64,000 bases of DNA from Bacteroidales bacterium (GTDB taxonomy: Bacteria > Bacteroidota > Bacteroidia > Bacteroidales > Marinilabiliaceae), in the NCBI GenBank assembly GCA_003249255.1, contig QKJP01000029.1, forward strand, positions 94,499 through 158,498, given 5' to 3'. Under the pieces are notes generated by a model. The model was not told where the DNA came from, ran no database searches, and saw only the letters and a list, made by a program, of their open reading frames with translations. The translations under genes and the position numbers were made by a program. Below, piece by piece: positions 26,496-45,677 of this stretch; the stretch's first letter is position 1; every line of letters starts with the position of its first letter.

Positions 26496-27133
26496 AAAAA
26501 CTCAAAGTACATATTGTCGATGACCATACCCTATTTAGAGAGGGCTTAATGTTTCTCTTAAAAAATAGCGAATATGTCTCTGAAATTAAAGGTGCTGAAA
26601 ATGGCAAAGAATTCCTTAGTCAGTTAACTGATTTTAAGTCGGATGTGGTTTTGATGGATATTGAAATGCCTGAATTAAATGGTGTTGAAGCTACCAAAGA
26701 AGCGTTAAAGCGTTGTCCTGAACTGAAAGTGGTGGCCCTTTCCATGTATTCTGACGAGAGCTTTTATTCAGAAATGATAGAAGCCGGGGCTAAAGGTTTT
26801 TTATTAAAGAATTCACAGTTTGAAGATGTTGAGAATGCCATTCTTGAAGCTCATAATGGTAGAAATTTTTTTTCACCCGAAATACTCACATCCATCATTG
26901 CTGGATTGAACCGAAAACCTCAGCCGATAAAAAGCGGTGAACTGACCAAAAGAGAGGTTGAAGTTTTACTAAACATTTGTCAGGGGTTATCAAATCAGGA
27001 AATTGCAGACGCACTAATTCTTAGCAAACGTACCGTAGATAAACATCGTGAAAATATTCTGTTAAAGACTGGCTCTAAAAATACAGCCGAAATGGTGGTA
27101 TATGCCATTAAGAAAGGGTATTTTGAAGTGTAG
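26492..27133 (+). CDS. response regulator, NarL/LuxR family
   Basis: REC domain (VLMDIEMPELNG) plus a C-terminal LuxR HTH (LSNQEIADALILSKRTVDKHRENILLK). Confidence 0.85.
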   Translation: MKKLKVHIVDDHTLFREGLMFLLKNSEYVSEIKGAENGKEFLSQLTDFKSDVVLMDIEMPELNGVEATKEALKRCPELKVVALSMYSDESFYSEMIEAGAKGFLLKNSQFEDVENAILEAHNGRNFFSPEILTSIIAGLNRKPQPIKSGELTKREVEVLLNICQGLSNQEIADALILSKRTVDKHRENILLKTGSKNTAEMVVYAIKKGYFEV

Positions 27134-28773: not shown

Positions 28774-29760
28774 TTAATTTAATCTGTTAGCAACGTCTTC
28801 AATCAGATCAACTTCTCTTCTTAATTCATTAACGAGACTAGCATAATTGTTGGTTACATCAGATATTTCTATTTTGCCAATTTCTAATTTGTTAGAGGTT
28901 GATTTTATGCCTTCAACGATCTGATAAATTTCGTGAGCGTGGTCTTTGGTCTCGTTAGACATTTTTACAATTTCTCCTGAAATCACTCTAAAACCTTCGC
29001 CAAGTTTACCTACAGCCTGAGCTTCTATCGAAGCATTAAGGCCCATCAATCGAATTTTATCTGATATTTCACGAATTACTTTCACAATTAGATCGGCCTG
29101 TTCTGCTTTTGTGGTTGATTCATGAACGCTATCCATTAGTTTGTCAGTCAATGAGGTTAGTTCTGTTTGTCTTAAAGCTAATTGATTGATTTTATTGGTT
29201 AGCACTGTGATTCTTTCGACTAAATCATCGCCTGCACCTTTACGTCTGCTAATGTCAGAATCGATTGTGGCCAAATAAATCAAATCTCCATTTTTATTTA
29301 AGATCGGATTTAGTGAAGTCTCTGTCCATATTTCTTTGCCCGATAAAGTGATGTTTAAAGCTTCGTAATTGACCGGCTTTTTACTTGTCATGCACCTGTT
29401 TAGTCTTTCTTTTATAGCCGGGTCAAAGCTGGTTTGAAGGATGTTACTTCCTTTTGCTTGAATGAACTCCTCATAGGTATATTCGTACATCCGTGTAAAG
29501 CCATCGTTAATCCATTCAATGTTTCCTTTGGGATCCATGATCATAATGGCATTGTCGGTTTGAGTCGCCACTATGGATAATAGCTCCATTTCCTTTTGTT
29601 GAGCAAGGTTCAGTTGTATGGTCTTGTTTTGGGCTATTTCGATTTTAAGTTCTTTCTGCAAGTCTTGGTTTAGGGCTTGGTACTCTTTTCTTTTTAGCCT
29701 TTGAAAATAGGCACACAGCGACAATGCAACAATTGCCGCGCTTAACATCACGTTAATCAT
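28774..29760 (-). CDS. PAS-domain protein with methyl-accepting-chemotaxis-like signalling domain
   Basis: N-terminal TM, a PAS-like segment (IMIMDPKGNIEWINDGFTRMYEYTYEEF), and a C-terminal MCP signalling region (LMGLNASIEAQAVGKLGEGFRVISGEI). Confidence 0.55.
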   Translation of the reverse strand: MINVMLSAAIVALSLCAYFQRLKRKEYQALNQDLQKELKIEIAQNKTIQLNLAQQKEMELLSIVATQTDNAIMIMDPKGNIEWINDGFTRMYEYTYEEFIQAKGSNILQTSFDPAIKERLNRCMTSKKPVNYEALNITLSGKEIWTETSLNPILNKNGDLIYLATIDSDISRRKGAGDDLVERITVLTNKINQLALRQTELTSLTDKLMDSVHESTTKAEQADLIVKVIREISDKIRLMGLNASIEAQAVGKLGEGFRVISGEIVKMSNETKDHAHEIYQIVEGIKSTSNKLEIGKIEISDVTNNYASLVNELRREVDLIEDVANRLN

Positions 29761-30306
29761 TCTACCTCTATTTTTTTATAACAACGCTGCAAAAGTAGTT
29801 AAAAATTGCGAGATGGGTTGGTGGTTGTGAGGGAGCTATTTAATAATACTACTAAAATGCTGTTTGTGCTCCCTCCTATAAGGTGGGGGTTGTTTATATT
29901 TAGGTATTGTAGGGTGTATTAGTCCTCTAAGTGAAAATAGGTTTTTATTTAGTAAGGCTGTTTTGCATAGTTTTTTCTGTCGGTCGAATAAAAAAATGAG
30001 AACTCCTGATCCTATTTAACGGCTGACAACCTCTGATGTTTTTTATATCGGCTCTGTAGAATAATGGTTAATCGATTCAATGTTGAAAAATTGCTAATGA
30101 TCTAAAAATTATTTTAAACGGATTCTTTTTTAGTATCTAAATAATTGGGAGGATAATTTTTAACTACATAGTACATTGGTTTAAGTAGGGTAAAATGAGC
30201 TCGTTGTTAAGAAAATCTCACATTTCCCCTCCTTTGTTGAGTTTCAGCAATTACTTTTTTCACTATATTGCCAACCCTTAATTAAACTGAAATCTTTTAT
30301 AACCCA

Positions 30307-30939
30307 ATGCAAGAAGTAATTAGTGCCTCTTTTTCGACCATCAACCTGATTCCAACAGTTCTTTTATTACTCGTTTTAGTTTATTGGTTAACTGTTATTG
30401 TTGGTGTTTTTAACATCGATACATTTGATTTTGAAACATCTGCCGATGGGGATGTAGACATTGAATTTGGCGAATCTTTTATTTGGCTGAATTCAGCACT
30501 GTCTTTTTTTAATCTAGGCCGGGTTCCTATCATGATTATCCTTAGCTTTTTTGCGTTATCGCTTTGGTTTTGTTCCATTCTGGTTAATCATTATTTAGGC
30601 ATAACCTCCATGGGTTTTGCATTGGTGTTATTAATTCCTGAGATAATTATTAGTGCTTTTGTATCTAAGTTTTTCTCCACTCCTTTTGTAAAGCTTTTTA
30701 AGAAAGATTTAAGTGTGATTGAGAGTAATGAGCATCTAACCGGTAAGATGTGCACCGTAACCTTAGAAGCCGATGCTAAAAACTTTGGTCAAGCTGAGAT
30801 TAAAATTGATGGTACGTCTTTAATCATTAATGTATTAGCTACTGAAGAGGGCATGGTTTTACCCAAAGGGGAAAGTTGCTTGGTGATCGATTACCTTCCT
30901 GAAAGAAAGTTATATTTAATAGAATCCTATAAAAATTAG
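30307..30939 (+). CDS. NfeD/YqiJ-like (DUF1449) inner-membrane protein
   Basis: 210 aa with four TM helices and a C-terminal beta-rich OB-like segment. It lies 8 bp upstream of a flotillin gene, the same arrangement as E. coli yqiJ-yqiK. Confidence 0.55.
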   Translation: MQEVISASFSTINLIPTVLLLLVLVYWLTVIVGVFNIDTFDFETSADGDVDIEFGESFIWLNSALSFFNLGRVPIMIILSFFALSLWFCSILVNHYLGITSMGFALVLLIPEIIISAFVSKFFSTPFVKLFKKDLSVIESNEHLTGKMCTVTLEADAKNFGQAEIKIDGTSLIINVLATEEGMVLPKGESCLVIDYLPERKLYLIESYKN

Positions 30940-30946
30940 TTACCCT

Positions 30947-33055
30947 ATGTTAGAAAATGTAATTCAAACCTCCATTATTATTGGAGTAATTTTATTCGTT
31001 GGAATCATCATCTTGGTGGTTAAAACTTATCGCAAAACCACCCAAGGACAAGCTCTGGTTCGTACCGGACAAGGTGGATCTAAAGTAACCTTCGACGGTT
31101 TTTTTGTTATTCCTGTGCTTCATCGCATGGAAGTGATGGATATTACCTTAAAAACTGTAACCATTGCGCGTGAAGGTAAAGAGGGATTGATTTGTAAAGA
31201 CAACCTTCGTGCAGACATCCGGGTGAATTTCTTTGTGCGTGTGAATAAAACATCTGAAGATGTAATTCAGGTAGCGCAGGCGATTGGTTGTAACCGTGCA
31301 TCTGATATTACAGCTTTGGTTGATTTATTTGATGCGAAGTTCTCAGAAGCTTTAAAAACAGTTGGTAAGCAATTTGAATTTGTGGAATTATATAATTCAC
31401 GTGAGAAATTTAAATTAGAAATTCTTCGTACAATTGGTACCGACTTAAATGGTTATGTGCTGGATGACTGTGCCATTGATTTCTTAGAGCAAACTCCGGT
31501 TGAGCAACTTTCTCCGGATAATATTTTAGATGTGGAAGGGATCAAGAAGATTACTAAAATCACGTCTGAACAACAAATCTTATCTAATCAGATTAGACGA
31601 GATAAAGAGAAAACGATTACTAAGCAGGATGTTGAAGCCAAAGAGACGGTGCTTCAATTAGAAAAACAGTTGGCTGAGACTCAGGAAAAGCAAAAACGTG
31701 AAATCGCCAATGTGAGAGCACGTGAGCAAGCAGAAATTGCCAAAGTGGGTCAGGAGCAAGCTTTAATTAGTGAGAATGCACGCATTGCTACCGAAGAAGA
31801 AATTATGGTAGCTGAAGAAAATAAAGAGCGCCAGATTATTGTGGCACGTAAAAATAAAGAACGTACTGAAGCTTTAGAGAACGAATCAGTTTTAAAAGAT
31901 CAACAGTTAGAAGCTAACGAACGCGAGAAGATTGTTTCTTTGGCTCGAATGGAAAAAGATAAGCTTTTAGAAGCTGAGCAAAAGAAAATGCAAGAGGTCG
32001 TTCGTGAGCGCATTGAGGTTGAAAAATCAGTTGTTGCCGAGCAGGAGAAAATCAAGGATACTCAGGCTCATGCAGAGGCAGAGCGGAATAAGTTAGTAGC
32101 GATCAAAGAAGCCGAAAAAGAAGCTGAGACGAACTTAGTAACTGAAATTAAGAGTGCCGAAGCAGCTCGTAAAGCAGCTGAGTTTAAAACGGAACAACGC
32201 ATTATGGAAGCCAAGGCTGCTCAGGAAGCTGCTGATAAAGAAGCAACAGCCATGAAGATTTTAGCTGAGGCAAAAGCTGCAGAAGCGGCTGCTGTTGGTA
32301 TTTCAGAAGCACAGGTGATTGAAGCGAAAGCTGCCGCCAAAGAAAAAGAAGGAATTGCTCAGGCAAATATCATTTTATCAACCTCTAAAGCAGAAGCCGA
32401 AGCAATTCAGAAAAAAGGATTGGCTGAAGCTACCGTTAAGCAGGCCTTAGCCAAAGCATCTGAAGAAGAAGGTATGGCTGAAAACCGTGTGGCGAGCGAG
32501 AAATTCTCAATCGAAGCAAAAGGTATTGAAGAAAAAGCTGCTGCCATGAAAAAATTAGATGGTGTCGGTAAGGAACATGAAGAATTCAAACTGCGCCTTA
32601 ACAAAGACAAAGAAATTGAATTGGCTAAAATCAACATCCAAAAAGAAATTGCAGGTGCTCAGGCTAAAGTGATCAGCGAAGCGCTTAGAGCTGCAAATAT
32701 CGATATTGTTGGTGGTGAAACCATGTTCTTTAATCAAATTATGGGTGCCATCACTAATGGAAAAGCTGTAGATCGCATGGTAGGCAGTAGCAATGTGTTA
32801 GCCGATGTAAAAGACACCTTTTTCTCCACTGATGATGGAAAGAGTTTCAAGGTGAACTTACAACAGTTTATCGATCAGTTTGGAATGAGTTCTGAAGATT
32901 TAAAGAACTTAAGCTTAACAAACCTTCTGTACAAGATGGGGAACCAAACGAATAAAGAAACCGATAAAAACTCCATCCTTGGCTTATTAGATACCGTTAA
33001 GAGCTTAGGCTTATCTAATAAAACAGCTCAAGAAGTTGGCATTGAGCCATTTTAG
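30947..33055 (+). CDS. flotillin-like SPFH/Band-7 protein (YqiK/FloT-like) with extended Ala/Glu/Lys-rich coiled coil
   Basis: N-terminal TM then an SPFH domain (GQALVRTGQGGSKVTF...). The 702-aa length includes a long EA/KA-repeat coiled-coil region. Confidence 0.8.
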   Translation: MLENVIQTSIIIGVILFVGIIILVVKTYRKTTQGQALVRTGQGGSKVTFDGFFVIPVLHRMEVMDITLKTVTIAREGKEGLICKDNLRADIRVNFFVRVNKTSEDVIQVAQAIGCNRASDITALVDLFDAKFSEALKTVGKQFEFVELYNSREKFKLEILRTIGTDLNGYVLDDCAIDFLEQTPVEQLSPDNILDVEGIKKITKITSEQQILSNQIRRDKEKTITKQDVEAKETVLQLEKQLAETQEKQKREIANVRAREQAEIAKVGQEQALISENARIATEEEIMVAEENKERQIIVARKNKERTEALENESVLKDQQLEANEREKIVSLARMEKDKLLEAEQKKMQEVVRERIEVEKSVVAEQEKIKDTQAHAEAERNKLVAIKEAEKEAETNLVTEIKSAEAARKAAEFKTEQRIMEAKAAQEAADKEATAMKILAEAKAAEAAAVGISEAQVIEAKAAAKEKEGIAQANIILSTSKAEAEAIQKKGLAEATVKQALAKASEEEGMAENRVASEKFSIEAKGIEEKAAAMKKLDGVGKEHEEFKLRLNKDKEIELAKINIQKEIAGAQAKVISEALRAANIDIVGGETMFFNQIMGAITNGKAVDRMVGSSNVLADVKDTFFSTDDGKSFKVNLQQFIDQFGMSSEDLKNLSLTNLLYKMGNQTNKETDKNSILGLLDTVKSLGLSNKTAQEVGIEPF

Positions 33056-33329
33056 AAAAAGATAAATAGATTGTTAGATGATAGATGTTAGACTTATTTT
33101 TATAGTCTAATATCTATCCGTCTATAATTTTTCAAATTTCCCCAACGCTCACTCTTCGATTCCCTATAGGGATCAACGCGCGATCGCTTCCCCTTTAGGG
33201 ATTAGGGGTAAATGTGTTGGCATATTTAATTTGTAATATTTTTCGTATGGTCAATTCTATCAATCTATTATCTAATGTCTATTAGTCTATCATCTAATAA
33301 TCTATCCAAAATTTGTCCATTCGTAACTT

Positions 33330-36300
33330 ATGACTGAAGAAACAAAACCCACCGAGACACAATTAGAACAAGGCACTTACGAAATAATCCAGAACCGTTT
33401 AGTTCAGAATGGTAAAGATTTACAAAATCGGCTGAAAACCTTAAACGATGAGCGAAAAAAAGTTTTTGGTTCCATTGAGACGGCTTTGATTGGTAATGAG
33501 CGAATATCTACTGAAAATAATTGTATTGCTGTAGATATGATCACCATAGGCCAGTGTTTTATATTTGGATACAATGTGGTGATTGGCCTTAAAACGGAGG
33601 TTGAAATTTCGGATGTTTTTAGTGTTTATAAGTATAGTTGCAAAGATCATAATTTTCAATCAGAAAGTCTTAATCTGATTTATTCCAAAGAATTTGAAAA
33701 CGATTTCAAAAACCTTTATAAATACTACAAAGAAGCCCAGTTTACAAAATTTGCAAAAATTGGCACTTCACTTTTCATGGTGTTTAAAACCGGAAAAGGC
33801 AAGTACGATATTAAAACCTTAAAATTTGCCATTAATGGCGATACCATTCATTATCTGGATAACCGTAGTGACCATGAATTTGTGTTTCCAAACCAGCACG
33901 AATTTCAGTGGAAGAAAACAACCCGCGATCAGCATGTCAAAGGTGAACATCCGCATATCTCCATCGAAGACCGCGTGTTTGTTGAAACAGTAGGCGGTGA
34001 TTTAACCATCAAAATTGAAAATAACACCGATTCCGGAGAAGGAATTTACGAAGAAGACGTTGATCACAAAACTCAAACTTTAGATGATGGTGAATACTAC
34101 TATGCCATCATTGATAACCTGATCGTATTAAAGATCAAACCCTACCAGGAAGAGAAATTCCGTTACATTGTTTATAACGATAAGATAAAACAAGCCGTTC
34201 GCATTGATTCCCTTGAAGGTTCGTGCGTGTTGCTTCCGGATAACCATGGTTTAATATTTGCCAATGGTTATTATTTACAAACCGGTGAGACGAAGATTTT
34301 TGATAATCAACTCTCCGATATGCTCTATCAGCAACGCATTGCTTCGCCTAACGGGGAAGATTTTTTATATGTTTTCTTCAATCAATCCAGCGGAGAATAC
34401 ATATTACTTTCTTATAACCTGATTGCACAAGAGGTTGAAACGCCTATCATCTGCAATGGTTACTCCTTGTTTGAAAATGGGGAGATGTGCTATTTTAAAT
34501 CTGATGGTGAGCCTAAAAAGCACCATACCCTTCAGATTTGGAAAACGCCTTATTTGGATAGTAATTATCAATCTACAGATAACGCTTATCAGGATTCATT
34601 CCTGTATAAAATAGGTAATAAAGACATCGTTCGTGGGATGTCGGAATGTAGTGAGGTTTTAAAGCTCATCAACAAAGAGGATAGCTACGAAAACCTTTAC
34701 ATCGACATCCTTAAAAAGTCCAACGACATCATTGATGCCTATTATTGGGTGGGCAAGGAAGAGGCTGCCAATCTGTTAGTGCCTTTAGCAGAAATTAAAG
34801 AAACGGCCGGCAATGCCATCGAGGAGTTCGAGAAGGTCGTAACCATGAAAAAGAATACCCGCGATGAAGTGAACCGGGTAAAGCTACTGATCGAAACGCT
34901 TGTGCAAAAGATCAAAGATTCTTCTTTCTCTAACATCAACGAATACGTGAATGTGTTGGCCGATTTAAGAGGCTTACGTGGAGAAACCATTTCATTAAAA
35001 GAACTAAGGTATGTAGACCTTGATTACGTTCAGGAAGAGGAAGGAAAATTAGAGACTTTCAACTCAGAAATTTCTAACAACTGTGTAAAGTTTCTTTTAA
35101 AAGAAGAAGCCCTTCAGCCTTATTACGACAAGGTTGAAGAATTAAAAACAAAAATTACCGAAGTATCAAAAGTAGTTGATGCGAACAAAATAGAAAACGA
35201 GCTCACTCAAACATCTTCAGAGTTGGAGATGCTGATCGAAATCATCAGTAATCTTAAAATTGAAGATGCCACAGAGACCACTCGTATCATCGATGCCATA
35301 TCGAGCATTTATTCTAGCTTTAACCAGGTAAACGCAGCACTGAAAAGGAAGCGAAAAGAGTTGTTAAGCCTGGAAGGAACCGCAGAGTTTAATGCTCAAA
35401 TTAAACTGATTAGCCAAGGATTAACCAACTATTTGGAGCTAGCCGATGCACCGGAAAAGTGTGTGGAGTTTCAAACCAAGTTAATGGTTCAGATTGAAGA
35501 ATTGGAAGGTAAATTCTCTGATTTTGATGAGTTTATCGAAAAGATTAACACCAAGCGTGAAGAGATTTACAATTCTTTTGAGTCGAAGAAAATAAGTTTA
35601 GTAGAAGCTCGTAATAAGCGGGCGAATAGCTTAATGCAATCCTCAGAGCGCATCCTCAAAGCCATTCGCAACCGTGTAACGAAGTTTAAAGAGGTGAGCG
35701 AAATTAACGGTTACTATGCTTCCGATTTGATTATTGAAAAGTTGCGTAACCTTGTTAATGAATTGGTTGAGTTGGAAGATCCGGTAAAAGCTGATGCCAT
35801 CCAGAGCCAGTTAAAGACCATTAAAGAAGAAGCCATTCGCCAGTTAAAAGACAAGAATGAGCTTTTTGTGGATGGCCAGAATATCATCAAGTTTGGTACG
35901 CATCATTTCTCGGTAAACACTCAGGCTTGTGAGCTAACCATGGTGTTTAAAGATGGCGATATGTATTTTCACCTGACCGGAACCAGCTTCTATGAGAAAG
36001 TTGTTAACGATGATTTTTATAGCTATAAAGACCTTTGGGATCAGAGCATTCCATCTGAAAACAAAGAAGTATACCGCGCAGAATATTTAGCTTATCAAAT
36101 TTTAGAAGCCAACATTGGAAACCCAACCCGCGACTTCTCAAAGATGACGGATGAAGAGTTACTGGGCTACATTCGCGAATTTATGAGTCAGCGTTATAAC
36201 GAAGGCTATGTAAAAGGCGTTCACGATCAGGATGCGCTTATCATTGTAAAAGAATTACTGGCCTTGGTACAAACTGCCGGACTGTTAAAATATTCCACCA

Positions 36301-38219
36301 AAGCGCGTGCTTGCGCGAATTTGTATTGGAGCTGTTTTGCCTCAGATAGCATAAAAAACAGTTACCGCAAACAAATGAAAGGCATCGGTGCCTTGCTTGA
36401 GGTTTTTCCTGATGCACAGGAGTTTCAATACATCATTGAAGGCATTGAAAAAGAGTTAGCCGAGTTTATCTTGGAAACAAAACTATTTGATCCGCTTTAC
36501 ATTCCCGAAGCTGCCGATTATTTATTTCATGAGGTCGTAAGTGGCGATGATTTTGTGGTTGATTATCAGGCATCCACATTGTATGAAGCCTTTCATCGAT
36601 TTTTAAAAGATAAAAAGGCTCAAGATAAATTTAGCCACTCCAAAGCTGAGTTGGTAGATAGTCCTTTGGCTCAATACCAATTAATTACCAAATGGTTGAA
36701 GGCCTTTATGATGACATCCGGCGTTACAAACAAAGATCATTACATCAATGAAGTTTCGGTGTTATTAATGCTGGATAATTTTGATAATAAGAATGTCATC
36801 AAGGTAAGTCTGAGTAAGGAATTGGATGGTTTGCAAGGAACTCATTCCACATTGGAAGGAGGAAAGTATCAGTTTGATTACAATAATTTCATATTTAAGT
36901 TAAAGAACTACCAGGAAAAGGTAGCTCAGCGTTTTGATGTGTTGAGTGGATTAAAGAAAAACTTGATTCAGCAATTTGAAGAAGATTTAAGGTTGAATGA
37001 GTTTAAGCCTCGTGTCATGTCTTCCTTTGTTAGAAATAAGCTCATCGATAAAGTTTACCTGCCATTGGTAGGAGATAACCTGGCAAAACAAATGGGGACA
37101 GCCGGAGAAGGTAAACGTACCGATTTAATGGGGATGTTACTCCTAATTTCACCTCCGGGATATGGTAAAACGACCTTGATGGAATACATAGCCAGTCGTT
37201 TAGGTATCATCTTTATGAAGATTAACGGGCCGGCCATTGGACATGAAGTAACCTCTCTGGACCCTGCCGAAGCAGGTAATGCCGGGGCTCGTGAAGAGTT
37301 GAAAAAGCTAAACCTATCCTTTGAGATGGGCGATAATGTGATGATCTACCTGGATGATATTCAGCACTGTAATCCCGAATTTTTGCAGAAGTTTATTTCC
37401 CTTTGTGATGCTCAGCGTAAGATCGAAGGTGTGTATAAAGGCAAGAGTAAGACTTATGATTTTCGTGGTCGAAAAGTATGCGTAGTAATGGCCGGTAACC
37501 CCTACACCGAAAGTGGAGATAAATTCCAGATACCGGATATGTTAGCGAACCGTGCGGATATTTATAACCTGGGTGATATTTTAGGAGATACAGCAGATAT
37601 CTTTAACATGAGTTACATCGAGAATACACTAACATCTAATAAAGTATTGAACCAATTGGCTGCCAAAAGTCACAACGATATTTATCCCTTGTTGCGCCTA
37701 GCTGAAACTGGTGATAAGGATGGCTTAGAGTTTGAAGCAAGCCATACACCAACTCAGATAAACGATTATGTAAATGTGCTGAAAAAACTAATCGTCATTC
37801 GGGATGTGATTTCGAAGGTTAACCAGCACTATATTTCATCAGCAGCACAAGCCGAAGAATACAGAACTGAACCACCATTTAAGCTTCAGGGATCGTACCG
37901 AAACATGAATAAAATTACCGAAAAGGTAATGCCTATCATGAATCATGAAGAGTTAGAGACCTTAATACTTTCGCACTACGAAGGAGAGTCTCAAACACTA
38001 ACATCAGGGGCAGAGGCCAACATGTTGAAGTTTAAAGAGATCTTTGGTAAGATGAATGAAAAAGATGTGGCCAGATGGGAAGAAATCAAGCAAACCTTCC
38101 GCAAAAATCAAAAATTAAAAGGCGGTGGTGCCAATAATCAGGCTGCACAAGTAGTTGCCGGAATGGATAACATTACCGAGAGTATTTTGGAGCTGAAAAA
38201 GGCTTTGATGAAGAATTAA
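33330..38219 (+). CDS. giant (1629 aa) protein with C-terminal AAA+ ATPase domain (MoxR/AAA_5-like); function unknown
   Basis: Single uninterrupted 4.9-kb ORF. Walker A LLLISPPGYGKTTLMEY, Walker B VMIYLDDIQH, sensor VCVVMAGNPYT, and a downstream R-finger-like IPDMLANRADIYNLG near aa 1240-1400. The N-terminal ~1200 aa are beta-rich then long alpha-helical, with no domain I can name. Confidence 0.7.
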   Translation: MTEETKPTETQLEQGTYEIIQNRLVQNGKDLQNRLKTLNDERKKVFGSIETALIGNERISTENNCIAVDMITIGQCFIFGYNVVIGLKTEVEISDVFSVYKYSCKDHNFQSESLNLIYSKEFENDFKNLYKYYKEAQFTKFAKIGTSLFMVFKTGKGKYDIKTLKFAINGDTIHYLDNRSDHEFVFPNQHEFQWKKTTRDQHVKGEHPHISIEDRVFVETVGGDLTIKIENNTDSGEGIYEEDVDHKTQTLDDGEYYYAIIDNLIVLKIKPYQEEKFRYIVYNDKIKQAVRIDSLEGSCVLLPDNHGLIFANGYYLQTGETKIFDNQLSDMLYQQRIASPNGEDFLYVFFNQSSGEYILLSYNLIAQEVETPIICNGYSLFENGEMCYFKSDGEPKKHHTLQIWKTPYLDSNYQSTDNAYQDSFLYKIGNKDIVRGMSECSEVLKLINKEDSYENLYIDILKKSNDIIDAYYWVGKEEAANLLVPLAEIKETAGNAIEEFEKVVTMKKNTRDEVNRVKLLIETLVQKIKDSSFSNINEYVNVLADLRGLRGETISLKELRYVDLDYVQEEEGKLETFNSEISNNCVKFLLKEEALQPYYDKVEELKTKITEVSKVVDANKIENELTQTSSELEMLIEIISNLKIEDATETTRIIDAISSIYSSFNQVNAALKRKRKELLSLEGTAEFNAQIKLISQGLTNYLELADAPEKCVEFQTKLMVQIEELEGKFSDFDEFIEKINTKREEIYNSFESKKISLVEARNKRANSLMQSSERILKAIRNRVTKFKEVSEINGYYASDLIIEKLRNLVNELVELEDPVKADAIQSQLKTIKEEAIRQLKDKNELFVDGQNIIKFGTHHFSVNTQACELTMVFKDGDMYFHLTGTSFYEKVVNDDFYSYKDLWDQSIPSENKEVYRAEYLAYQILEANIGNPTRDFSKMTDEELLGYIREFMSQRYNEGYVKGVHDQDALIIVKELLALVQTAGLLKYSTKARACANLYWSCFASDSIKNSYRKQMKGIGALLEVFPDAQEFQYIIEGIEKELAEFILETKLFDPLYIPEAADYLFHEVVSGDDFVVDYQASTLYEAFHRFLKDKKAQDKFSHSKAELVDSPLAQYQLITKWLKAFMMTSGVTNKDHYINEVSVLLMLDNFDNKNVIKVSLSKELDGLQGTHSTLEGGKYQFDYNNFIFKLKNYQEKVAQRFDVLSGLKKNLIQQFEEDLRLNEFKPRVMSSFVRNKLIDKVYLPLVGDNLAKQMGTAGEGKRTDLMGMLLLISPPGYGKTTLMEYIASRLGIIFMKINGPAIGHEVTSLDPAEAGNAGAREELKKLNLSFEMGDNVMIYLDDIQHCNPEFLQKFISLCDAQRKIEGVYKGKSKTYDFRGRKVCVVMAGNPYTESGDKFQIPDMLANRADIYNLGDILGDTADIFNMSYIENTLTSNKVLNQLAAKSHNDIYPLLRLAETGDKDGLEFEASHTPTQINDYVNVLKKLIVIRDVISKVNQHYISSAAQAEEYRTEPPFKLQGSYRNMNKITEKVMPIMNHEELETLILSHYEGESQTLTSGAEANMLKFKEIFGKMNEKDVARWEEIKQTFRKNQKLKGGGANNQAAQVVAGMDNITESILELKKALMKN

Positions 38220-38226
38220 AAAAAAA

Positions 38227-38345
38227 GGCAGAAGGCAGTAGGCAGAAGACAGAAGTGAAAATGTGCAAATTAGGAAATGTGCAAATTAAATATGTGCTAA
38301 TTATTTGTTCGGATAAAAACGGACTTTCGGACTAAGTACCTCGGA
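38227..38345. repeat. ~115-bp direct repeat, arm 1 (partner at 38521..38640)
   Basis: GGCAGAAG...AATGTGCAAATTAGGAAATGTG...TGTGCTAATTATTTGTTCGGATA(A/G)AAACGGACTTTCGGACTAAGTAC(C/T)TCGGACTA is shared at ~85% identity. Confidence 0.6.
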
Positions 38346-38347
38346 CT

Positions 38348-38369
38348 AAAAAAAAAGCTCCAACGGAGC
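38348..38369 (-). terminator. orphan rho-independent terminator on the minus strand
   Basis: The minus strand reads GCTCCGTTGGAGC followed by a T9 run. No annotated minus-strand gene lies upstream of it. Confidence 0.5.
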
Positions 38370-38520
38370 GTTGTCTTCTAGCCTAGTGCGTAGCGCTAGG
38401 AGGTAATGTGAATGAAATCATGTAAATCAATGTCGCAACCGCAAAGGAGGATTGTGAGCTAAAGTTGAATGCGACATCTTGCACAATGGAAAATTAGTTA
38501 ACAGAAGCATTAATCAAAAA

Positions 38521-38640
38521 GGCAGAAGTGTGCAAATTAGGAAATGTGAGAAAGTAAAAATTAAATAATGTGCTGATGTGCTAATTATTTGTTCGGATAG
38601 AAACGGACTTTCGGACTAAGTACTTCGGACTATTAAAAAA
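38521..38640. repeat. ~115-bp direct repeat, arm 2
   Basis: See arm 1. It ends 10 bp before the TerB-like gene start. Confidence 0.6.
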
Positions 38641-38649
38641 CAATATAAA

Positions 38650-39057
38650 ATGAGCATAATAAATAGCAATTCAAGTCAGGCAAAAGGTGAATTAGCAGCT
38701 TTTGTAAGAATGGCAAAGGCCGATGGTATCATCAAAAAATCCGAGGATATGTTGCTGCGTCTTTTGGCCAAAAAATTAAATGTAGCGGAATCTGATTTAG
38801 ATGCGATCTGTGATAATCCGGATAACTTTCCATTAGAGCCGCCAATCAATACAGAAGATCGAAATGTATTGTTTTACAAGTTGATTCAAATGATGAAAGT
38901 GGATTTATCTGTAGAGGTGGATGAAATTGAATTTTGTAAAAACATAGGACTTGATTTAGGCATTAGTCCCGCTAAGATTGATGACATTATTAAAATATCA
39001 ATTCTTAAAAATAAAGAAGTGGTTGATTACGATACCATTCGAAAGTTGTTGGTGTAA
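38650..39057 (+). CDS. TerB-like (tellurite-resistance TerB / DjlA-N-like) domain protein
   Basis: 135 aa with two helix-pair units matching the TerB pattern (AKADGIIKKSEDMLLRLLAKKLNV and VDLSVEVDEIEFCKNIGLDLGIS). Confidence 0.5.
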   Translation: MSIINSNSSQAKGELAAFVRMAKADGIIKKSEDMLLRLLAKKLNVAESDLDAICDNPDNFPLEPPINTEDRNVLFYKLIQMMKVDLSVEVDEIEFCKNIGLDLGISPAKIDDIIKISILKNKEVVDYDTIRKLLV

Positions 39058-39084
39058 TAGTCAACCAATTGAAATAACTAAAAT

Positions 39085-39118
39085 GCAGTTAAGATGTTAT
39101 GCTTAACTGCTTTTTTAT
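39085..39118 (+). terminator. rho-independent terminator
   Basis: GCAGTTAAG-loop-CTTAACTGC followed by TTTTTT after the TerB-like gene. Confidence 0.65.
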
Positions 39119-39147
39119 TTGTTTGAAATGATTAATAAAACCTGATC

Positions 39148-39942
39148 TTGAATACAAAAGTGGAAAAAAATAAATCCGGATTTACCATTAACTCCTGCAT
39201 CTCAAGTGGTATTGTCCTCCTTATGCTATTAGTGGGCGTCTTTCAAGTGTATGAAATGCATAAGCGATCGAAGCGTTTAGAAACTAAAAATCAAGTGCGA
39301 AAAGAGCTGTCCAAAATAAGTGCTAAAGAATCAGAGTTGAGAGACCATCTTCAGGCAATTGCACAAAAGTTGCAGCCGGTTCACTTATATACCAATAGTA
39401 CATCCGATTTTGAGTTGTATCTAAGTCCAAATATTTATTACAACAACGATTTAACTGGTGATGATGCAATATTGGAAGACTATGTCATTAAAATTGATGC
39501 TTTCCTAAAGCAAAATGGATCTGCGGGGTATACCGTGAAATATGTTCGTGATGATGTAGAAATCTATGTGATGAATTTGGATAATAACTCTAAGCTTCAT
39601 CCTGATTCTAATTATTATGCGCTTAAAATGTGGAAAGAATTTGATGAAGATAGCACTGGATATAAAAAACTGCCTGAAATATCTGTACTTTATTTACTCT
39701 TGAGCGAATCGGAATTAAAACAAGGAAAGGCTAACAGCTTATCTGATTTTTATTGGAAGAAAAAGATGAAGGAAATCAATTCAGAGAACAGATTTTGCTT
39801 CTCACCTTATAACCGAAGAGTAAGTCAGGAAAAGTTTGATTCAATTGTAGACTACTTTAAAGCGATGTATTTAGATGGGATGGATCTAAACAGGATAAAA
39901 AAATATAGTAAAGAAGTCTCTGTTAGTAGTTCTTATTTTTAA
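39148..39942 (+). CDS. hypothetical membrane-anchored protein
   Basis: N-terminal TM (GIVLLMLLVGVFQVY) then a coiled coil; 264 aa. Confidence 0.45.
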   Translation: MNTKVEKNKSGFTINSCISSGIVLLMLLVGVFQVYEMHKRSKRLETKNQVRKELSKISAKESELRDHLQAIAQKLQPVHLYTNSTSDFELYLSPNIYYNNDLTGDDAILEDYVIKIDAFLKQNGSAGYTVKYVRDDVEIYVMNLDNNSKLHPDSNYYALKMWKEFDEDSTGYKKLPEISVLYLLLSESELKQGKANSLSDFYWKKKMKEINSENRFCFSPYNRRVSQEKFDSIVDYFKAMYLDGMDLNRIKKYSKEVSVSSSYF

Positions 39943-41091: not shown

Positions 41092-42021
41092 ATGAAGAAA
41101 ATTTTATTTGCCTTACTTCCAATACTTTTTGGGGCATGTGATAAAGATGAAGACGTACAACTTAAAAATCGTTCAGTACCTCAGTTTTCTATTGATAATA
41201 AATACTTGATAGAAAAAAAACAATATGGATCCGGTGTTCCCAATAGTGGACTTGATTATTATTATAATTCAGATAGACAGTTTGTAAAGAAAGTTCCATT
41301 TAAAATAAATCCCAAAGACGTAAAGATAAGCTTACCTGGTACCGACAGCGTTATTTATACTAATGGTTATCCTATGGAAGCTTTTTATCGATATTCTTTA
41401 GGTAATGGAATATATGGAAACAATAGTTTTTTCAACAAGCGATACATTGAAGTAGGACTTGATGATTACGAGGTTTCCTGGAGTGGGCATGAAGATTATT
41501 TAAGACATGAGAAATTCTCCTTTTCCGGATCCAGGCTTGATAGCATCAATTATTCCATTTATGACATAAAAAGAAATGAGTTGCTGTCAACAGGAGTGGT
41601 TAAATATGCTTATCGCAATAATAAAATTGTTTCATCAGAAACTATTGGAGAAGGGGAGAAGTTCAAAAACTATGCTTTTACCGAGTATCAATACGATGAT
41701 GATAACCTGTCTGAAATTAAAGAGAAGTTTTGGACTGAGGCTGTGGACGGAACAATGGTAGTTGATACCTTATATTCGACCGAGGAGTTTTTAGAATATA
41801 GTGAAAATATCAACCCTTATAAAGGAATGTTTCTTTCATTAGAAGTACGGGAAAAATCTTTTTCTAAAAATACATTTGCTTTGTATAAGGCCAATGTCGT
41901 ATCGTCAAAAGGAACTACCAATTATATGATATCTACCGATAAGATTTATTTCGATTTTTACGATTTTAAATACCCTGGAAAAGATCATAAAGGGTTAAAC
42001 TTTTATTTTAAGCCGGATTAA
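41092..42021 (+). CDS. hypothetical lipoprotein
   Basis: Lipobox ILFGACDKD; 309 aa. Confidence 0.5.
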   Translation: MKKILFALLPILFGACDKDEDVQLKNRSVPQFSIDNKYLIEKKQYGSGVPNSGLDYYYNSDRQFVKKVPFKINPKDVKISLPGTDSVIYTNGYPMEAFYRYSLGNGIYGNNSFFNKRYIEVGLDDYEVSWSGHEDYLRHEKFSFSGSRLDSINYSIYDIKRNELLSTGVVKYAYRNNKIVSSETIGEGEKFKNYAFTEYQYDDDNLSEIKEKFWTEAVDGTMVVDTLYSTEEFLEYSENINPYKGMFLSLEVREKSFSKNTFALYKANVVSSKGTTNYMISTDKIYFDFYDFKYPGKDHKGLNFYFKPD

Positions 42022-42033
42022 ATCTATTGTAAA

Positions 42034-42477
42034 ATGGAAACATTTATAAAAGCCATCAGCTATTTCATTATCCTTATTGGCATCATATTCTTATTGTTTA
42101 CTTTTAATAATCTGTGGGAATCGCTTGTAGAGTATCAGGATTCAACCCACACAACAGGTGAAGTGTTGAGAGTAGAAACAACGAATGAAACAGATGCTTA
42201 CGGAAGCATGCAGACTTATTATACCCCTGTGGTGAAATTTGAAGATCAAATGGGCTTAGTTCATCAACTAAAGGTTATACGTGGTGCAAGTATTCCTGTT
42301 TATTCAGCTGGAGAGATGATTGATATAATGTATCCTCAGCGAGATTATTCAAAGGTTGAAGTCATTGATTTTGCACAATATTGGGGATCTAAACTATTTA
42401 TGTTTTTCTTAAGTTTTGGTGTCTTTTCTTTTGGGTTTTTACCCTTGTGGCTGATGAAAAGAAGTTCTAGGAAGTAG
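42034..42477 (+). CDS. DUF3592-like small membrane protein
   Basis: TM, beta-rich core, then TM topology; 147 aa. Confidence 0.45.
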   Translation: METFIKAISYFIILIGIIFLLFTFNNLWESLVEYQDSTHTTGEVLRVETTNETDAYGSMQTYYTPVVKFEDQMGLVHQLKVIRGASIPVYSAGEMIDIMYPQRDYSKVEVIDFAQYWGSKLFMFFLSFGVFSFGFLPLWLMKRSSRK

Positions 42478-42732
42478 GTAGAGGTATCCAATGTGCTGGT
42501 GAGCTAATGAGAAAATGTGCTAATTAAGTCTTTAGTTGTTTGAAGTTTAGTGATTGCAAAAAAAAACAATGTAGACTAATACCATTTTAACTATAGCATG
42601 AACACTTGGTAAAATGCCGCTCGACTAATGGCAGCGTTAAATGCGTAGCGGATTTAACGCTCATGACATTAGCATAGCGGTATAAGTTAATTTGCAAATT
42701 TGCACATTTATTAATTCTCACCTGTAAGACTT

Positions 42733-43464
42733 TTATAGCATTCCGCAATACTTTTCCCGTACAGCGAGATGTCTCGGATTGGCCTCAGGAGTAGGTACGG
42801 TACTGTTGTGCAAGGGTGGAGGAAAGCCTTCAGCTTTTCGGCGTTCAAAATCTACCTGGCGAAATTTATCAAAAGCTGTGCCAGGAGGTAATGGCCTATT
42901 TTTATCCATATACCATAAGATAAAGGCCAGATTATCGTCTGGATCATACCCCGGAACTTGAAGAATAGAACTGTTGGCAGCTACATAACTGGTTTTAGAG
43001 TTTGGCCCTTCCATTTTGTAGTGATGGCTGGTCTCAATTCTGAGTTGAGTATCTTTTAAAATTATCCGTTTAGATGTATTGTTTTTTAATCCGGATGCAA
43101 TTATTTCCCCACTTAACCTATTTAAATGGATTCGGTGCATTTTTTTGTTTTTAGTCCTTTTGTAAAACCAACGAGTAAGTAGACCAAAAGGTAAGGTTAT
43201 CGTTAAAAAAATAATGATCTGAACAAAGTCGAGCCTAAATGAGAAATGTAGACCTATGCCAAGCAAAAATACAAAAGCAAAGGTGCCTAGTATAATTTGA
43301 TTGCTTCCTCGATCATAAGTATCAAAGATGATTTCTTTATCTGATAAAGAGATGATTGTGGGCGGATATTTTTTATTGTTTAGATCTTCCTCGTTTATGG
43401 CAGGAGGTGTCCTGTAGATAGTTTGAATAATTGAGGGTTTTCGACTCATGTCGTTTTTGTACAT
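42733..43464 (-). CDS. hypothetical 2-TM membrane protein, paralog of 4232..5077
   Basis: Shares the C-terminal WYMDKNRPLPPGTAFDKFRQVDFERRKAEGFPPPL module. It directly abuts the upstream lipoprotein gene with a 0-nt gap. Confidence 0.5.
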   Translation of the reverse strand: MYKNDMSRKPSIIQTIYRTPPAINEEDLNNKKYPPTIISLSDKEIIFDTYDRGSNQIILGTFAFVFLLGIGLHFSFRLDFVQIIIFLTITLPFGLLTRWFYKRTKNKKMHRIHLNRLSGEIIASGLKNNTSKRIILKDTQLRIETSHHYKMEGPNSKTSYVAANSSILQVPGYDPDDNLAFILWYMDKNRPLPPGTAFDKFRQVDFERRKAEGFPPPLHNSTVPTPEANPRHLAVREKYCGML

Positions 43465-44571
43465 TTATTTAAAGTCTCTAAATTTAACAATTCCAAAGTC
43501 CTTTTGAGTTTTTAAGCTATGATGAACTTTCACTTCATCATTACCCATATCATTACAAGAGTAGTCATCTGTACCTATTTTATACAAGAAGTAGTCCTTT
43601 TTATCTTCATCGTATTTAAATGTGGTTACGACAAAGGATTTGTCACAAGCTCCATAAAGTTCTTCAATTGAAAAGTAACCATTCTTAATGGTGATTCCCT
43701 GAAATGGATCTCCCACTCCTGCACCTCCACAATCAGAGCACCCAACCAGATGATTATTTCTACCGGCAAATCTAAAATAAGGAAATCCTCCCCGCGTTTC
43801 TAATAGTACCACTTCCCGGTCAAAAGCATCCTCGATTGGAGTGAGTGCTTCGTTGCTAACTGTGTTTTCTAGTACCGCAATAAAATCATCAAAACCATCT
43901 TTGTTCAGATCACCTTTGGTCCAATACATCAGTTTGTAGCTTGAAGATGAGGCAATCAGGTAGGTGGAAATAACTTGTGCCGTGTCAATTGTTGTAGAAT
44001 TTTCGTGTTGAAAAAATAGGTATTTATTGCAGCCTTCAGCAATCTTTACAAAGTAAGTCATTGAGTTACCATAATTCTGAATAACAAAGTTTTCTTTCAC
44101 CGGATCGTAAAAAGCTTCAGTCTCCGTAGGCAAAGGTAGGGGCTCTTTTTCTTGAATGAGAGAGTCCGGAATATCATCACCATACTCAAGGCCTAATTCG
44201 CCCTCGTTTGCATGCCATTCAAAGTTTTTAAATCTGAAGAAAGGCTTGTTTTTCGAGTTGTAAATGATATCTAAGGAGTCAGAATGTGTTCTTTTGGGAG
44301 ATTGAAATTTATAAAAGAGCTGATTGTTTTTTAAGCTTATCTCAAACGAAAGCTTACATTCGGTATTTATCCAATTGCCAATAATTTGCTCCTTGTCAAC
44401 TTCGTAGTTTTTTTCCTCTTTAACCAAGCTAAGTGTGTCTACTTCGCTTTTTTTATCTATTAGATTCTTTTTCTTAACGACGATGCTATCGTTCTGATCT
44501 TGGCTTATTTTGCTTGGTTTTTGAGAACAAGAAATGAAAAGAATCAATGAAAAGAATAGAGTAGGTTTCAT
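43465..44571 (-). CDS. hypothetical lipoprotein
   Basis: Lipobox LILFISCSQ; 368 aa; forms an operon with 42733..43464. Confidence 0.5.
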   Translation of the reverse strand: MKPTLFFSLILFISCSQKPSKISQDQNDSIVVKKKNLIDKKSEVDTLSLVKEEKNYEVDKEQIIGNWINTECKLSFEISLKNNQLFYKFQSPKRTHSDSLDIIYNSKNKPFFRFKNFEWHANEGELGLEYGDDIPDSLIQEKEPLPLPTETEAFYDPVKENFVIQNYGNSMTYFVKIAEGCNKYLFFQHENSTTIDTAQVISTYLIASSSSYKLMYWTKGDLNKDGFDDFIAVLENTVSNEALTPIEDAFDREVVLLETRGGFPYFRFAGRNNHLVGCSDCGGAGVGDPFQGITIKNGYFSIEELYGACDKSFVVTTFKYDEDKKDYFLYKIGTDDYSCNDMGNDEVKVHHSLKTQKDFGIVKFRDFK

Positions 44572-44753
44572 GAATGAGATTTAGTTTTGGGTTAAGTTAC
44601 ATTTTCTAACTGTGATTGTGATTCCGGATTTAAACAAAACAATATATTTTCAACCACTAAAAACGCGAAATACACGAAAAGTAAAATCTGCTTGCTAATT
44701 TGTTTTTGTGGTTAGTGGCTTTATGTAGAGGACAGTCTATTGTCGGATTAGGG

Positions 44754-45677
44754 CTAATCAATCTCTAACACTTTTTTTATCCATAAAATACAATCCACTT
44801 CTTCTATTACCGACCAGGAGTGAGGATGACGAAAACCATGACTTCTTTTAGCCGGTCTGTCTGCGATGATTAATTCGGCTCTGTTGTTTCCTTGCAATAA
44901 AAGCTTGTTTATCATGGCTGAAGCGCATAGGATGTTCATGTCGAATAAATCTCTTCTTCTGTTTTTTAATTGCCACACAATATCCGGGTCATGGTGTAAT
45001 CTTACAGCCGTATTAAGTAAGTATTTCATATTTCCACCATCATCAGCGCCATTATAAAAAGGGGAGTGCTTGATGTAGTTTTCTAAATTGGTTTCAGGAG
45101 TTCCTTTTAAATCTCTTTCTAACCTTTTGAGGTAGAACCTCGCTTCTGTCATTGCAGCATCTGAATAATTCTTTTTCAATTCCCGTTTAAACGTGTAGTA
45201 GATATCTATCAGGTCAACCGGAGAATCAGCTGTAAAGACTGCCTGAGGATCAATCACTGCCTTTTGAGGATACTGTTTGCAATATTCTGTGAAACTTAAG
45301 GACATCACACCGCCGGCAGAGAAACCTCCAATGGCAAATTTATCTTTAGAAACCTTATAACGTTTGATAACATCTTCCAGCACTAAATTCATTTCGTTAA
45401 TAATGCTATCGTTTAAGTATATCGTTTCTTGACCATAAGACATGGCCACTACCAATAAATTATGTAAGTAGGCTACGTTGTGTAATTTGCTGTCCGGAAA
45501 GATGGTTTCGGGTTCTTGTGTGCCTCCGGGTAATAATACAAGTACCCCTTTGATTTCATCTTTAGGTTCCACAACAAAGTAGCTTTCATGGGCTTTGTTA
45601 AAAGTTATTTCTTTTACAGATTGACTAAATAGAATTGTAGATGAACAAATAAGTAGTAGAGTTAAAATAGATTTCAT
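44754..45677 (-). CDS. alpha/beta-hydrolase (esterase/lipase) family protein, secreted
   Basis: Signal peptide and a GGFSAGG nucleophile elbow (GxSxG). Confidence 0.65.
   Translation of the reverse strand: MKSILTLLLICSSTILFSQSVKEITFNKAHESYFVVEPKDEIKGVLVLLPGGTQEPETIFPDSKLHNVAYLHNLLVVAMSYGQETIYLNDSIINEMNLVLEDVIKRYKVSKDKFAIGGFSAGGVMSLSFTEYCKQYPQKAVIDPQAVFTADSPVDLIDIYYTFKRELKKNYSDAAMTEARFYLKRLERDLKGTPETNLENYIKHSPFYNGADDGGNMKYLLNTAVRLHHDPDIVWQLKNRRRDLFDMNILCASAMINKLLLQGNNRAELIIADRPAKRSHGFRHPHSWSVIEEVDCILWIKKVLEID

Follow-up and report, generated by a model that had tools for sequence, protein, structure and literature searches.

The 1629-aa ATPase that forms the subject of this analysis, encoded in a 64,000-nucleotide stretch of Bacteroidales DNA (hereafter the window), is an orthologue of the 'beta-propeller + coiled-coil + AAA+' DUF3686 family and is encoded third in a conserved module, behind the genes of an NfeD/YqiJ-like protein with three transmembrane segments and a flotillin-like SPFH protein. 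On balance, the evidence assembled below suggests that it is probably an ATP-driven remodeller of a sub-membrane flotillin/PspA scaffold acting in envelope stress, and not in DNA repair. Both the family and the operon are already described by comparative genomics, and the gene of the window is an orthologue that differs from them in nothing of substance.

The ATPase gene (gene 3 of the module, positions 33330-38219, plus strand, as are the other two genes of the module) starts with ATG, contains no internal stops and is the longest open reading frame of the window, the runner-up coding for 826 aa, which agrees with the original prediction of a largest, 4.9-kb ORF. Homologues of 1627-1660 aa align over its full length (coverage 99-100%, best identity 77%), the nearest public proteins being those of Labilibacter with 77% identity at 100% coverage. 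As these homologues are collinear with it from end to end, truncation is not indicated, and there is no sign of the frameshift that the original prediction had considered.

The N-terminal part, described in that prediction as carrying no assignable motif, belongs in fact to catalogued Pfam families, the outcome which that prediction had itself named as refuting it; both are domains of unknown function. DUF3686 (PF12458) was matched by aa 30-472 (33417-34745) with an E-value of 5.9e-190 and 632 bits over the complete profile (positions 1-448 of 448), against a gathering cut-off of 25 bits, and DUF7902 (PF25472) by aa 593-677 (35106-35360) with 98.7 bits. The combination of PF12458, PF00004 and PF25472 was present in all 120 homologues aligned at 99-100% query coverage. 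More than 5000 clusters at 90% identity possess the complete DUF3686, DUF7902 and AAA architecture, while the N-terminal domain alone was matched by 738 representatives at 50% identity, mostly of 1600-1900 aa. The family occurs in at least 585 species genomes and extends over Bacteroidota, the Planctomycetota-Verrucomicrobiota group, Desulfobacterota, Clostridia, Pseudomonadota, Actinomycetota and Deinococcota, so that the view of the protein as unlike canonical bacterial AAA+ proteins has to be given up in favour of a widespread bacterial family. The domain order, length and operon partners of this family, known to the databases as 'DNA repair ATPase', are all the same as those of the window ATPase.

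AlphaFold models of the ATPase (pLDDT about 86-87) place a helix at the N-terminus (aa 14-46), followed by a domain of about 26 strands at aa 52-405 (33483-34544; pLDDT about 90). The top PDB matches in Foldseek had E-values of 1e-6 to 1e-4 and TM scores of at most 0.35; most of them, among which are Elp1, CyRPA, the clathrin terminal domain, Ski8 and paraoxonase, we take to be beta-propeller-containing proteins. Judging from the model, the domain is thus likely to adopt a distant beta-propeller-like fold. The modelled chain continues into a spectrin-like helical-bundle or coiled-coil arm of about 430 aa (aa 424-850, 34599-35879), in which DUF7902 is embedded, and into a middle region (aa 852-1230, 35883-37019), delimited by the model, the invariant columns and the conservation profile and without any Pfam match. 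It comprises a small beta domain (aa 852-890), a conserved helical part in which G963, H965 and D968 ('GVHDxDA') are invariant, and a helical part of variable sequence (aa 1001-1200). Helices span aa 424-830 and most of 916-1260 in the models, which apart from the small beta domain bears out the composition anticipated earlier, with roughly 350 aa rich in beta structure and 850 aa of helix. The AAA+ alpha/beta core (aa 1265-1420, 37122-37589) is defined by its motifs, its invariant columns, the model and the profile match, and is followed by the lid and a C-terminal helical region (aa 1421-1629, 37590-38216), delimited by the model and by conservation. In the latter, the 'YRTEPPFKLQGSYRNM' segment (aa 1511-1526) is highly conserved and its residues R1512 and R1524 are invariant, making them candidate sensor-2 residues. 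The hydropathy scan revealed no window reaching 1.6 and hence no transmembrane segment; the protein is soluble, and we infer that it is cytoplasmic. The Pfam search detected no nuclease, TIR, protease, pore-forming or VWA domain in it.

The four AAA+ motifs expected at about aa 1240-1400 were all found, at the nearby positions aa 1277-1412: Walker A GYGKTT (aa 1277-1282, 37158-37175), Walker B IYLDDIQH of the form hhhhDD (aa 1339-1346, 37344-37367), sensor 1 VVMAGNP (aa 1385-1391, 37482-37502) and the Arg-finger helix ANRADIY (aa 1406-1412, 37545-37565). The core is the best-conserved stretch of the ATPase (mean top-residue frequency 0.76), and residues K1280 of Walker A, D1342/D1343 of Walker B, N1390 of sensor 1 and R1408 show no variation across 25 homologues with 29-46% identity to the window ATPase, an invariance that was counted in favour of predicted ATPase competence. 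A single Walker A/B pair and a single AAA match occur in the whole 1629-aa chain, in support of the proposed single C-terminal AAA+ module on a long beta and helical scaffold.

The predicted assignment of this module to the AAA_5/MoxR type found support as well. Pfam AAA_5 was matched with 26-30 bits (cut-off 22, profile positions 2-125 of 139), although PF00004, likewise above its cut-off, scored equally at 28.5-31.5 bits, so that the profile match cannot separate AAA from AAA_5. In the model, two strands (aa 1364-1369 and 1372-1377; pLDDT about 82-90) form a beta-hairpin (37419-37460) just ahead of the sensor-1 strand (aa 1383-1389), and a structure search returned the MoxR chaperones CbbQ and NorQ as the closest solved structures. 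As modelled, the AAA+ module is nearest to the MoxR/dynein class. It departs from the MoxR chaperones (CbbQ, NorQ, RavA) in several respects. Their helix-2 beta-hairpin may be missing from the window ATPase, as the model draws the 18 residues between strand 2 (aa 1294-1299) and helix 2 (aa 1318-1333) as a short helical turn and coil, and they carry little or no N-terminal extension compared with 1260 aa here. Their Walker B reads DE, whereas DD is found across the whole DUF3686 family, and ATP turnover may for this reason be slow or switch-like. The loop behind strand beta-2 lacks an aromatic pore-loop residue and thus gives no hint of polypeptide threading. MoxR systems usually have a VWA/MIDAS protein as partner; of the domains proposed for a profile search, AAA_5 was recovered and VWA was not, the Pfam scan finding no VWA/MIDAS domain in the ATPase or in the scanned flanking genes, and the partner is instead a flotillin.

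The likeness to dynein and midasin (Rea1/Mdn1) suggested by the original prediction does not hold, since those proteins concatenate six AAA modules in one chain compared with one in the window ATPase, which furthermore is bacterial and probably membrane-linked and lacks their linker, stalk and MIDAS architecture. Nor was the suggested resemblance to McrB-like GTPase motors upheld, as the combination of McrB as closest fold and an McrC nuclease partner was not found.

The two genes upstream complete the module. Gene 1 (30307-30939) encodes a small membrane protein of 210 aa, designated NfeD/YqiJ/YuaF-like on the basis of a weak match to Pfam YqiJ_N (E-value 7e-4, 20 bits, under the cut-off of 23), of three hydrophobic segments seen as hydropathy peaks, and of synteny; by eye, the sequence pattern of its C-terminal region resembles the NfeD OB domain. 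Gene 2 (30947-33055, 702 aa) combines a single N-terminal transmembrane helix, an SPFH-like region, a long coiled coil rich in Glu, Ala and Lys and a conserved C-terminal domain. Pfam, NCBIfam and PDB-profile searches with gene 2 itself gave no match, the flotillin family profile retrieved nothing from PDB sequences, and only one of 28 flotillin-family members was matched by Pfam. Its designation as flotillin-like, also in keeping with synteny, is due to the orthologue at locus L081 (47% identity over 669 aa), which matches Pfam Band_7 at 1.3e-8, and to the names 'flotillin family protein' or YqiK given to its homologues by NCBI and JGI. Genes 1 and 2 have their counterparts in the yqiJ-yqiK and yuaF-floT operons. 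This conserved flotillin/NfeD operon upstream, the decisive clue, had been missed by the original prediction. The window holds the short form of the operon, in which pspA is absent: no pspA, CesT-like or XRE-protease gene was detected in the entire 64 kb. A TerB-like ORF downstream of the ATPase gene (38650-39057) was rejected as a fourth member, none of the 80 loci compared having a homologue. A sigma-70 promoter scan performed no better than on shuffled sequences, the sigma-70 model being unsuited to Bacteroidota, and Rfam gave no significant match over 29700-39200.

Comparison across genomes showed that, among the 63 loci whose upstream DNA extends to at least 3 kb, the ATPase gene is immediately preceded by a flotillin-like gene of the same orientation in 60 (median gap 125 nt in the ORF-based analysis), whereas L017, L025 and L031 lack the flotillin gene. 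Ahead of the flotillin gene, an NfeD/YqiJ-like gene was present in 48 of 62, with its position and strand conserved. The loci come from Bacteroidota, Planctomycetota, Verrucomicrobiota, Desulfobacterales, Clostridia and Lentisphaeria, and the same gene order recurs at 34-41% identity in the Pseudomonas plasmid pQBR103, Streptomyces and Deinococcus. Within the module, a PspA/IM30 gene was present in 22 of 80 loci, as well as at L081 and on pQBR103, a CesT/YbjN-like gene in 18 of 80 and a divergent XRE-plus-protease regulator in 20 of 80. Together with the NfeD/YqiJ- and flotillin-like genes, these were the only recurrent neighbour clusters. The three module proteins have diverged in step with one another (correlation of pairwise identities 0.78; 0 of 999 permutations in the Mantel test). 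As the ATPase gene nearly always follows the flotillin and NfeD/YqiJ-like genes, its product most likely works at the membrane; physical contact between ATPase and flotillin we infer from gene order only.

Ravi et al. 2024 (PMC11237479) reported an operon of this composition, CesT-PspA-YqiJ/YuaF-Band-7/flotillin with a 'beta-propeller + coiled-coil + AAA+ ATPase'; they also mentioned an abbreviated form lacking PspA and proposed sub-membrane assembly and remodelling, with a general 'assembly/chaperone' role. To this the present analysis adds the placement of the AAA+ module nearest to the MoxR/dynein class and a model of the N-terminal fold. In B. subtilis, an SPFH protein is needed for recruitment of PspA to the membrane (PMC8581546). 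No experimental study came to light in a literature search on DUF3686, on 'DNA repair ATPase' with flotillin and on SPFH with MoxR. By analogy with other MoxR/dynein-class modules, the C-terminal ATPase would assemble into a ring, most likely a hexamer, and from each protomer a helical arm of roughly 800 residues, capped by the beta-propeller-like head, would reach outwards. Head or arm would dock on the sub-membrane scaffold formed by flotillin and its NfeD/YqiJ partner, and ATP hydrolysis would remodel this scaffold, whether by building it, dismantling it or turning it over. Where the operon is longer, the ATPase may also act on ESCRT-III-like PspA polymers recruited to the scaffold or on membrane proteins bound there as clients, and the likely setting would be a response to envelope or membrane stress. 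A more specific version, in which the protein would be specialised in remodelling or disassembling bacterial flotillin (SPFH) cages at the expense of ATP, with a MoxR/dynein-class ring, spectrin-like arms and propeller heads that grip the cage, is offered tentatively, as the less probable elaboration of the general role.

HflK/C with FtsH, and FloT/FloA with FtsH in B. subtilis, are pairs of SPFH and AAA+ proteins. With these pairs and the YqiJ-YqiK and YuaF-FloT operons taken together, the present module has in common an SPFH scaffold that is encoded beside its NfeD-type partner and would work with an AAA+ machine. FtsH is however a membrane-anchored AAA protease of the classical clade, whereas the window ATPase is soluble, MoxR-like and without a protease domain. 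The existence of such partnerships, HflK/C-FtsH being mentioned in PMC13086221, lends some weight to a client-directed chaperone or quality-control motor, for which the flotillin/NfeD cage would be a platform only: the ATPase would act on other membrane or sub-membrane proteins held there, in the manner of FtsH inside HflK/C cages or of MoxR chaperones maturing specific complexes, and leave flotillin itself unremodelled. The AAA+ module is nearest to CbbQ and NorQ, remodellers of specific client complexes, and the modelled beta-propeller-like head could bind clients. No conserved fourth gene presents itself as the client, though, recurrence being confined to PspA, the CesT-like gene and the regulator, and the ATPase has neither a protease or other effector domain nor a VWA adaptor. 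We consider this explanation rather unlikely, yet the most serious of the alternatives.

An anti-phage or conflict system, in which the MoxR-like NTPase and its membrane partners would sense infection and trigger membrane-directed abortive infection, appears improbable. Conflict systems often hold MoxR-class NTPases (PMC7159879), the module is found on megaplasmids (pQBR103 and plasmids of Streptomyces and Deinococcus), and the identity to the window ATPase is higher in Planctomycetota (54%) than in Flavobacteriia (50%), which suggests some horizontal transfer. PADLOC nevertheless returned nothing apart from IetA at 14 bits over the P-loop, nuclease, TIR, protease, pore-forming and VWA effectors are absent, and the adjoining genes are housekeeping or signalling genes that are not conserved between loci. 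A mean pairwise identity of 50% across phyla is also high for a defence gene, and the recurrent partner PspA is an envelope-stress protein. Least probable is a genuine DNA-repair or recombination ATPase, to which the database names 'DNA repair ATPase' and 'ATPase involved in DNA repair' point together with weak RuvB_N/RuvB matches of 21-23 bits over the P-loop. No RuvB profile above threshold within a DNA-binding or repair context was found; the NCBIfam search gave sub-threshold RuvB only and no family model, and PDB sequence searches with the single protein and with the family profile yielded P-loop-level matches only, to p97 and RuvB, and no solved relative. The 'DNA repair ATPase' label is probably a historical mislabel.

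Remodelling of the flotillin/PspA scaffold, the reading we prefer, has a parallel in the Vps4-ESCRT-III system, PspA and Vipp1 being ESCRT-III homologues: in the loci with PspA, the gene of an AAA+ protein is linked to that of a polymer which remodels membranes. The assembly and turnover of bacterial flotillin scaffolds are poorly understood, and a genetically hard-wired AAA+ partner offers a direct handle on them; moreover, the databases probably give a wrong function to a large family spanning many phyla. If the more specific reading of a cage disassemblase is true, bacterial flotillin microdomains would have in the ATPase their first energy-dependent regulator, one that serves them as Vps4 serves ESCRT-III.

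The longest open reading frame (ORF) of the window (33330-38219, forward strand) has an ATG start and 1629 codons with zero internal stops, the runner-up encoding 826 aa, and so many open codons in DNA with a G+C content of 35-39% rule out a chance origin. Alignments to homologues 1627-1660 aa in length spanned the whole protein (99-100% coverage) and gave no hint of a frameshift or truncation. In agreement with the original prediction, the ORF is intact and carries all of the proposed Walker A, Walker B, sensor-1 and Arg-finger-like motifs: GYGKTT (aa 1277-1282), IYLDDIQH (aa 1339-1346, nt 37344-37367), VVMAGNP (aa 1385-1391) and ANRADIY (aa 1406-1412). Residues K1280, D1342, D1343, N1390 and R1408 do not vary across 25 aligned relatives, whose identity to the window protein is only 29-46%. 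The Walker B motif has the form hhhhDD throughout the family instead of the usual DE, with both aspartates retained, a possible sign that ATP is turned over slowly or in a switch-like manner. Hydropathy in 19-residue windows stayed below 1.6 throughout, so the ATPase has no transmembrane segment.

Pfam searches placed DUF3686 (PF12458) on aa 30-472 with the entire profile covered (E 5.9e-190), DUF7902 (PF25472) on aa 593-677 (E 2e-28) and AAA (28.5 bits) and AAA_5 (26.1 bits) on aa 1270-1393. The N-terminal region, previously considered unassignable, thus falls in a catalogued family, an outcome that the original prediction had itself named as refuting it. The same architecture is found in more than 5000 clusters of 90% identity, the nearest relatives being Labilibacter and Saccharicrinis proteins (74-77% identity), which places the source of the window in a Marinilabiliaceae-like member of Bacteroidota. 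When residues 1-480 served as the query of an exhaustive search, 738 proteins were recovered, each representing a cluster at 50% identity; the majority measure 1600-1900 aa and carry the domain N-terminally.

Two AlphaFold models, each built from alignments of 97 sequences, were confident (pLDDT 86.6 for aa 1-830 and 85.9 for aa 800-1629). They comprise an N-terminal helix (aa 14-46), a beta domain of about 26 strands (aa 52-405), helical bundles (aa 424-830), a small beta domain (aa 852-890), a helical region (aa 916-1150), a long helix (aa 1184-1220), the AAA+ core (aa 1265-1420) and a helical lid with the C-terminal region (aa 1421-1629), the latter including a very conserved YRTEPPFKLQGSYRNM segment (aa 1511-1526). 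The middle domain, which had no Pfam match, carries within its helical region (around aa 955-970) a GVHDxDA motif (aa 963-969, nt 36216-36236) with invariant G963, H965 and D968 that could be a binding or catalytic site. A beta-hairpin (aa 1364-1377) directly precedes the sensor-1 strand, as in the MoxR/dynein superclade; the helix-2 insert lacks a hairpin in the model, and an aromatic residue is absent from the loop after strand 2 family-wide. Domain order, conservation of the catalytic residues and a MoxR/dynein-class fold of the ATPase can be taken as established. The suggested AAA_5/MoxR, dynein/midasin-like class gained structural support, whereas the likeness to dynein and midasin fails at the level of architecture, as does the analogy with McrB.

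The informative feature lies beyond this ORF, in a flotillin operon. Two genes immediately precede the ATPase gene on the same strand: an NfeD/YqiJ-like gene (30307-30939; 210 aa, three hydrophobic segments, weak YqiJ_N match) and a flotillin-like gene (30947-33055; 702 aa, a single TM helix at the N-terminus and an extended coiled coil rich in Glu, Ala and Lys). The 702-aa protein had no match among Pfam, NCBIfam or PDB profiles; databases label homologous proteins 'flotillin family protein' or YqiK, and its orthologue in the metagenomic locus L081 (47% identity over 669 residues) matches Band_7 at 1.3e-8. The spacer between the flotillin-like and ATPase genes is 275 nt long, whereas related loci have a median of 125 nt at this place. 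Of the spacer, 200 nt are flanked by a 20-nt inverted repeat (33066-33085 / 33286-33305, 95% complementary) with no further copies in the window.

A scan of species genomes confirmed at least 585 stretches, from Bacteroidota, Planctomycetota, Verrucomicrobiota, Desulfobacterales, Clostridia and Lentisphaeria, and 80 loci encoding relatives were fetched from such genomes. Of 63 loci for which 3 kb or more of upstream DNA was available, 60 have a flotillin-like gene directly upstream on the same strand, and an NfeD/YqiJ-like gene lies ahead of it in 48 of 62, establishing a near-obligatory operon of the ATPase with a flotillin-like protein and an NfeD/YqiJ-like membrane protein. Core gene order is kept, at 34-41% identity, in Pseudomonas fluorescens plasmid pQBR103, Streptomyces and Deinococcus. 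It also holds in L081, a Band_7 - DUF3686 - PspA - AAA locus. Divergence is correlated among the three proteins (r = 0.78; Mantel 0/999 permutations), which shows co-inheritance as a unit, with shared phylogeny also contributing to the correlation. Clustering of all ORFs from the 80 loci revealed no conserved downstream gene. A subset of loci has an extended upstream form: 22 carry a PspA/IM30-like gene, 18 a CesT/YbjN-like gene and 20 an XRE-HTH plus protease-like regulator on the divergent strand, none of which occurs in the window; in pQBR103 the module comes after a PspA-polyamine operon. In L081 (13453-16026) a PspA_IM30 gene and another AAA gene (588 aa) come after the ATPase gene, so PspA can lie downstream as well as upstream. 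The PspA link is recurrent but optional. A small ORF of about 146 aa immediately precedes the ATPase gene in loci L004 (818-1258), L006 (9527-9949) and L009 (9356-9913), in the last two between the flotillin and ATPase genes, and by eye resembles the DUF559 endonuclease-like family.

Other features surround the module. A 135-aa ORF (38650-39057, forward strand) matched TerB over aa 15-52 only (28 bits, cut-off 24.4) and was rejected as a conserved partner, since none of the 80 loci has it beside the module. L081 does have a TerB gene at a distance of 5 kb upstream, and the Streptomyces locus L085 has a TerD gene at 4 kb downstream. Past the end of the ATPase gene, the spacer contains two direct copies of a repeat of roughly 130-150 nt (38210-38356 and 38504-38640; 65-nt core 94% identical), with no third copy in the window and no Rfam family match. 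A HisKA_3 histidine kinase and LuxR/NarL-type response regulator (25557-27133, forward strand) lie 3 kb upstream and are not among the conserved neighbours; LiaSR, of the same class, controls PspA-like genes in Firmicutes. The reverse-strand gene at 28774-29760, divergent from the module and 546 nt from the NfeD-like gene, encodes 328 aa with PAS domains plus an MCP signalling domain and lacks any evident TM region. Five successive ORFs at 41092-45677 (309, 147, 243, 368 and 307 aa) had no Pfam match at E <= 0.001.

The soluble ATPase would assemble into a ring via its AAA+ module and, with extended helical arms and propeller-like heads, reach a membrane-anchored flotillin/NfeD scaffold; its use of ATP may remodel the scaffold, recruited PspA polymers or scaffold-held clients under envelope stress. 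In B. subtilis, the SPFH protein YdjI has been shown experimentally to be needed for bringing PspA to the membrane (PMC8581546). A close variant, which the same data fit, is a chaperone that acts on clients from a flotillin platform. Pfam describes PF12458 as 'ATPase involved in DNA repair' and NCBI names homologues 'DNA repair ATPase' or 'AAA family ATPase'; the sole basis for a repair function is sub-threshold P-loop similarity to RuvB, and genomic context contradicts it. PDB sequence searches found no solved structure of any relative, p97 and RuvB being matched only over about 40 residues surrounding the P-loop. The 'DNA repair ATPase' family is probably mis-named. A defence system is unlikely, since PADLOC gave no match, an effector domain is absent, sequence conservation is high and the neighbours are ordinary.

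The operon has been described by comparative genomics (Ravi et al. 2024, mSystems, PMC11237479; preprint 2020), including more widely distributed PspA-less 'abbreviated operons', a Dokdonia donghaensis operon in a supplementary table with the gene order recovered here, and a proposed chaperone-like role in assembly of sub-membrane complexes. Novelty is therefore low, both the family to which this gene is orthologous and its operon having been published before. Our literature search found no experimental paper on the DUF3686 ATPase family, and for a family so widespread and probably mis-named this is where the remaining interest lies.
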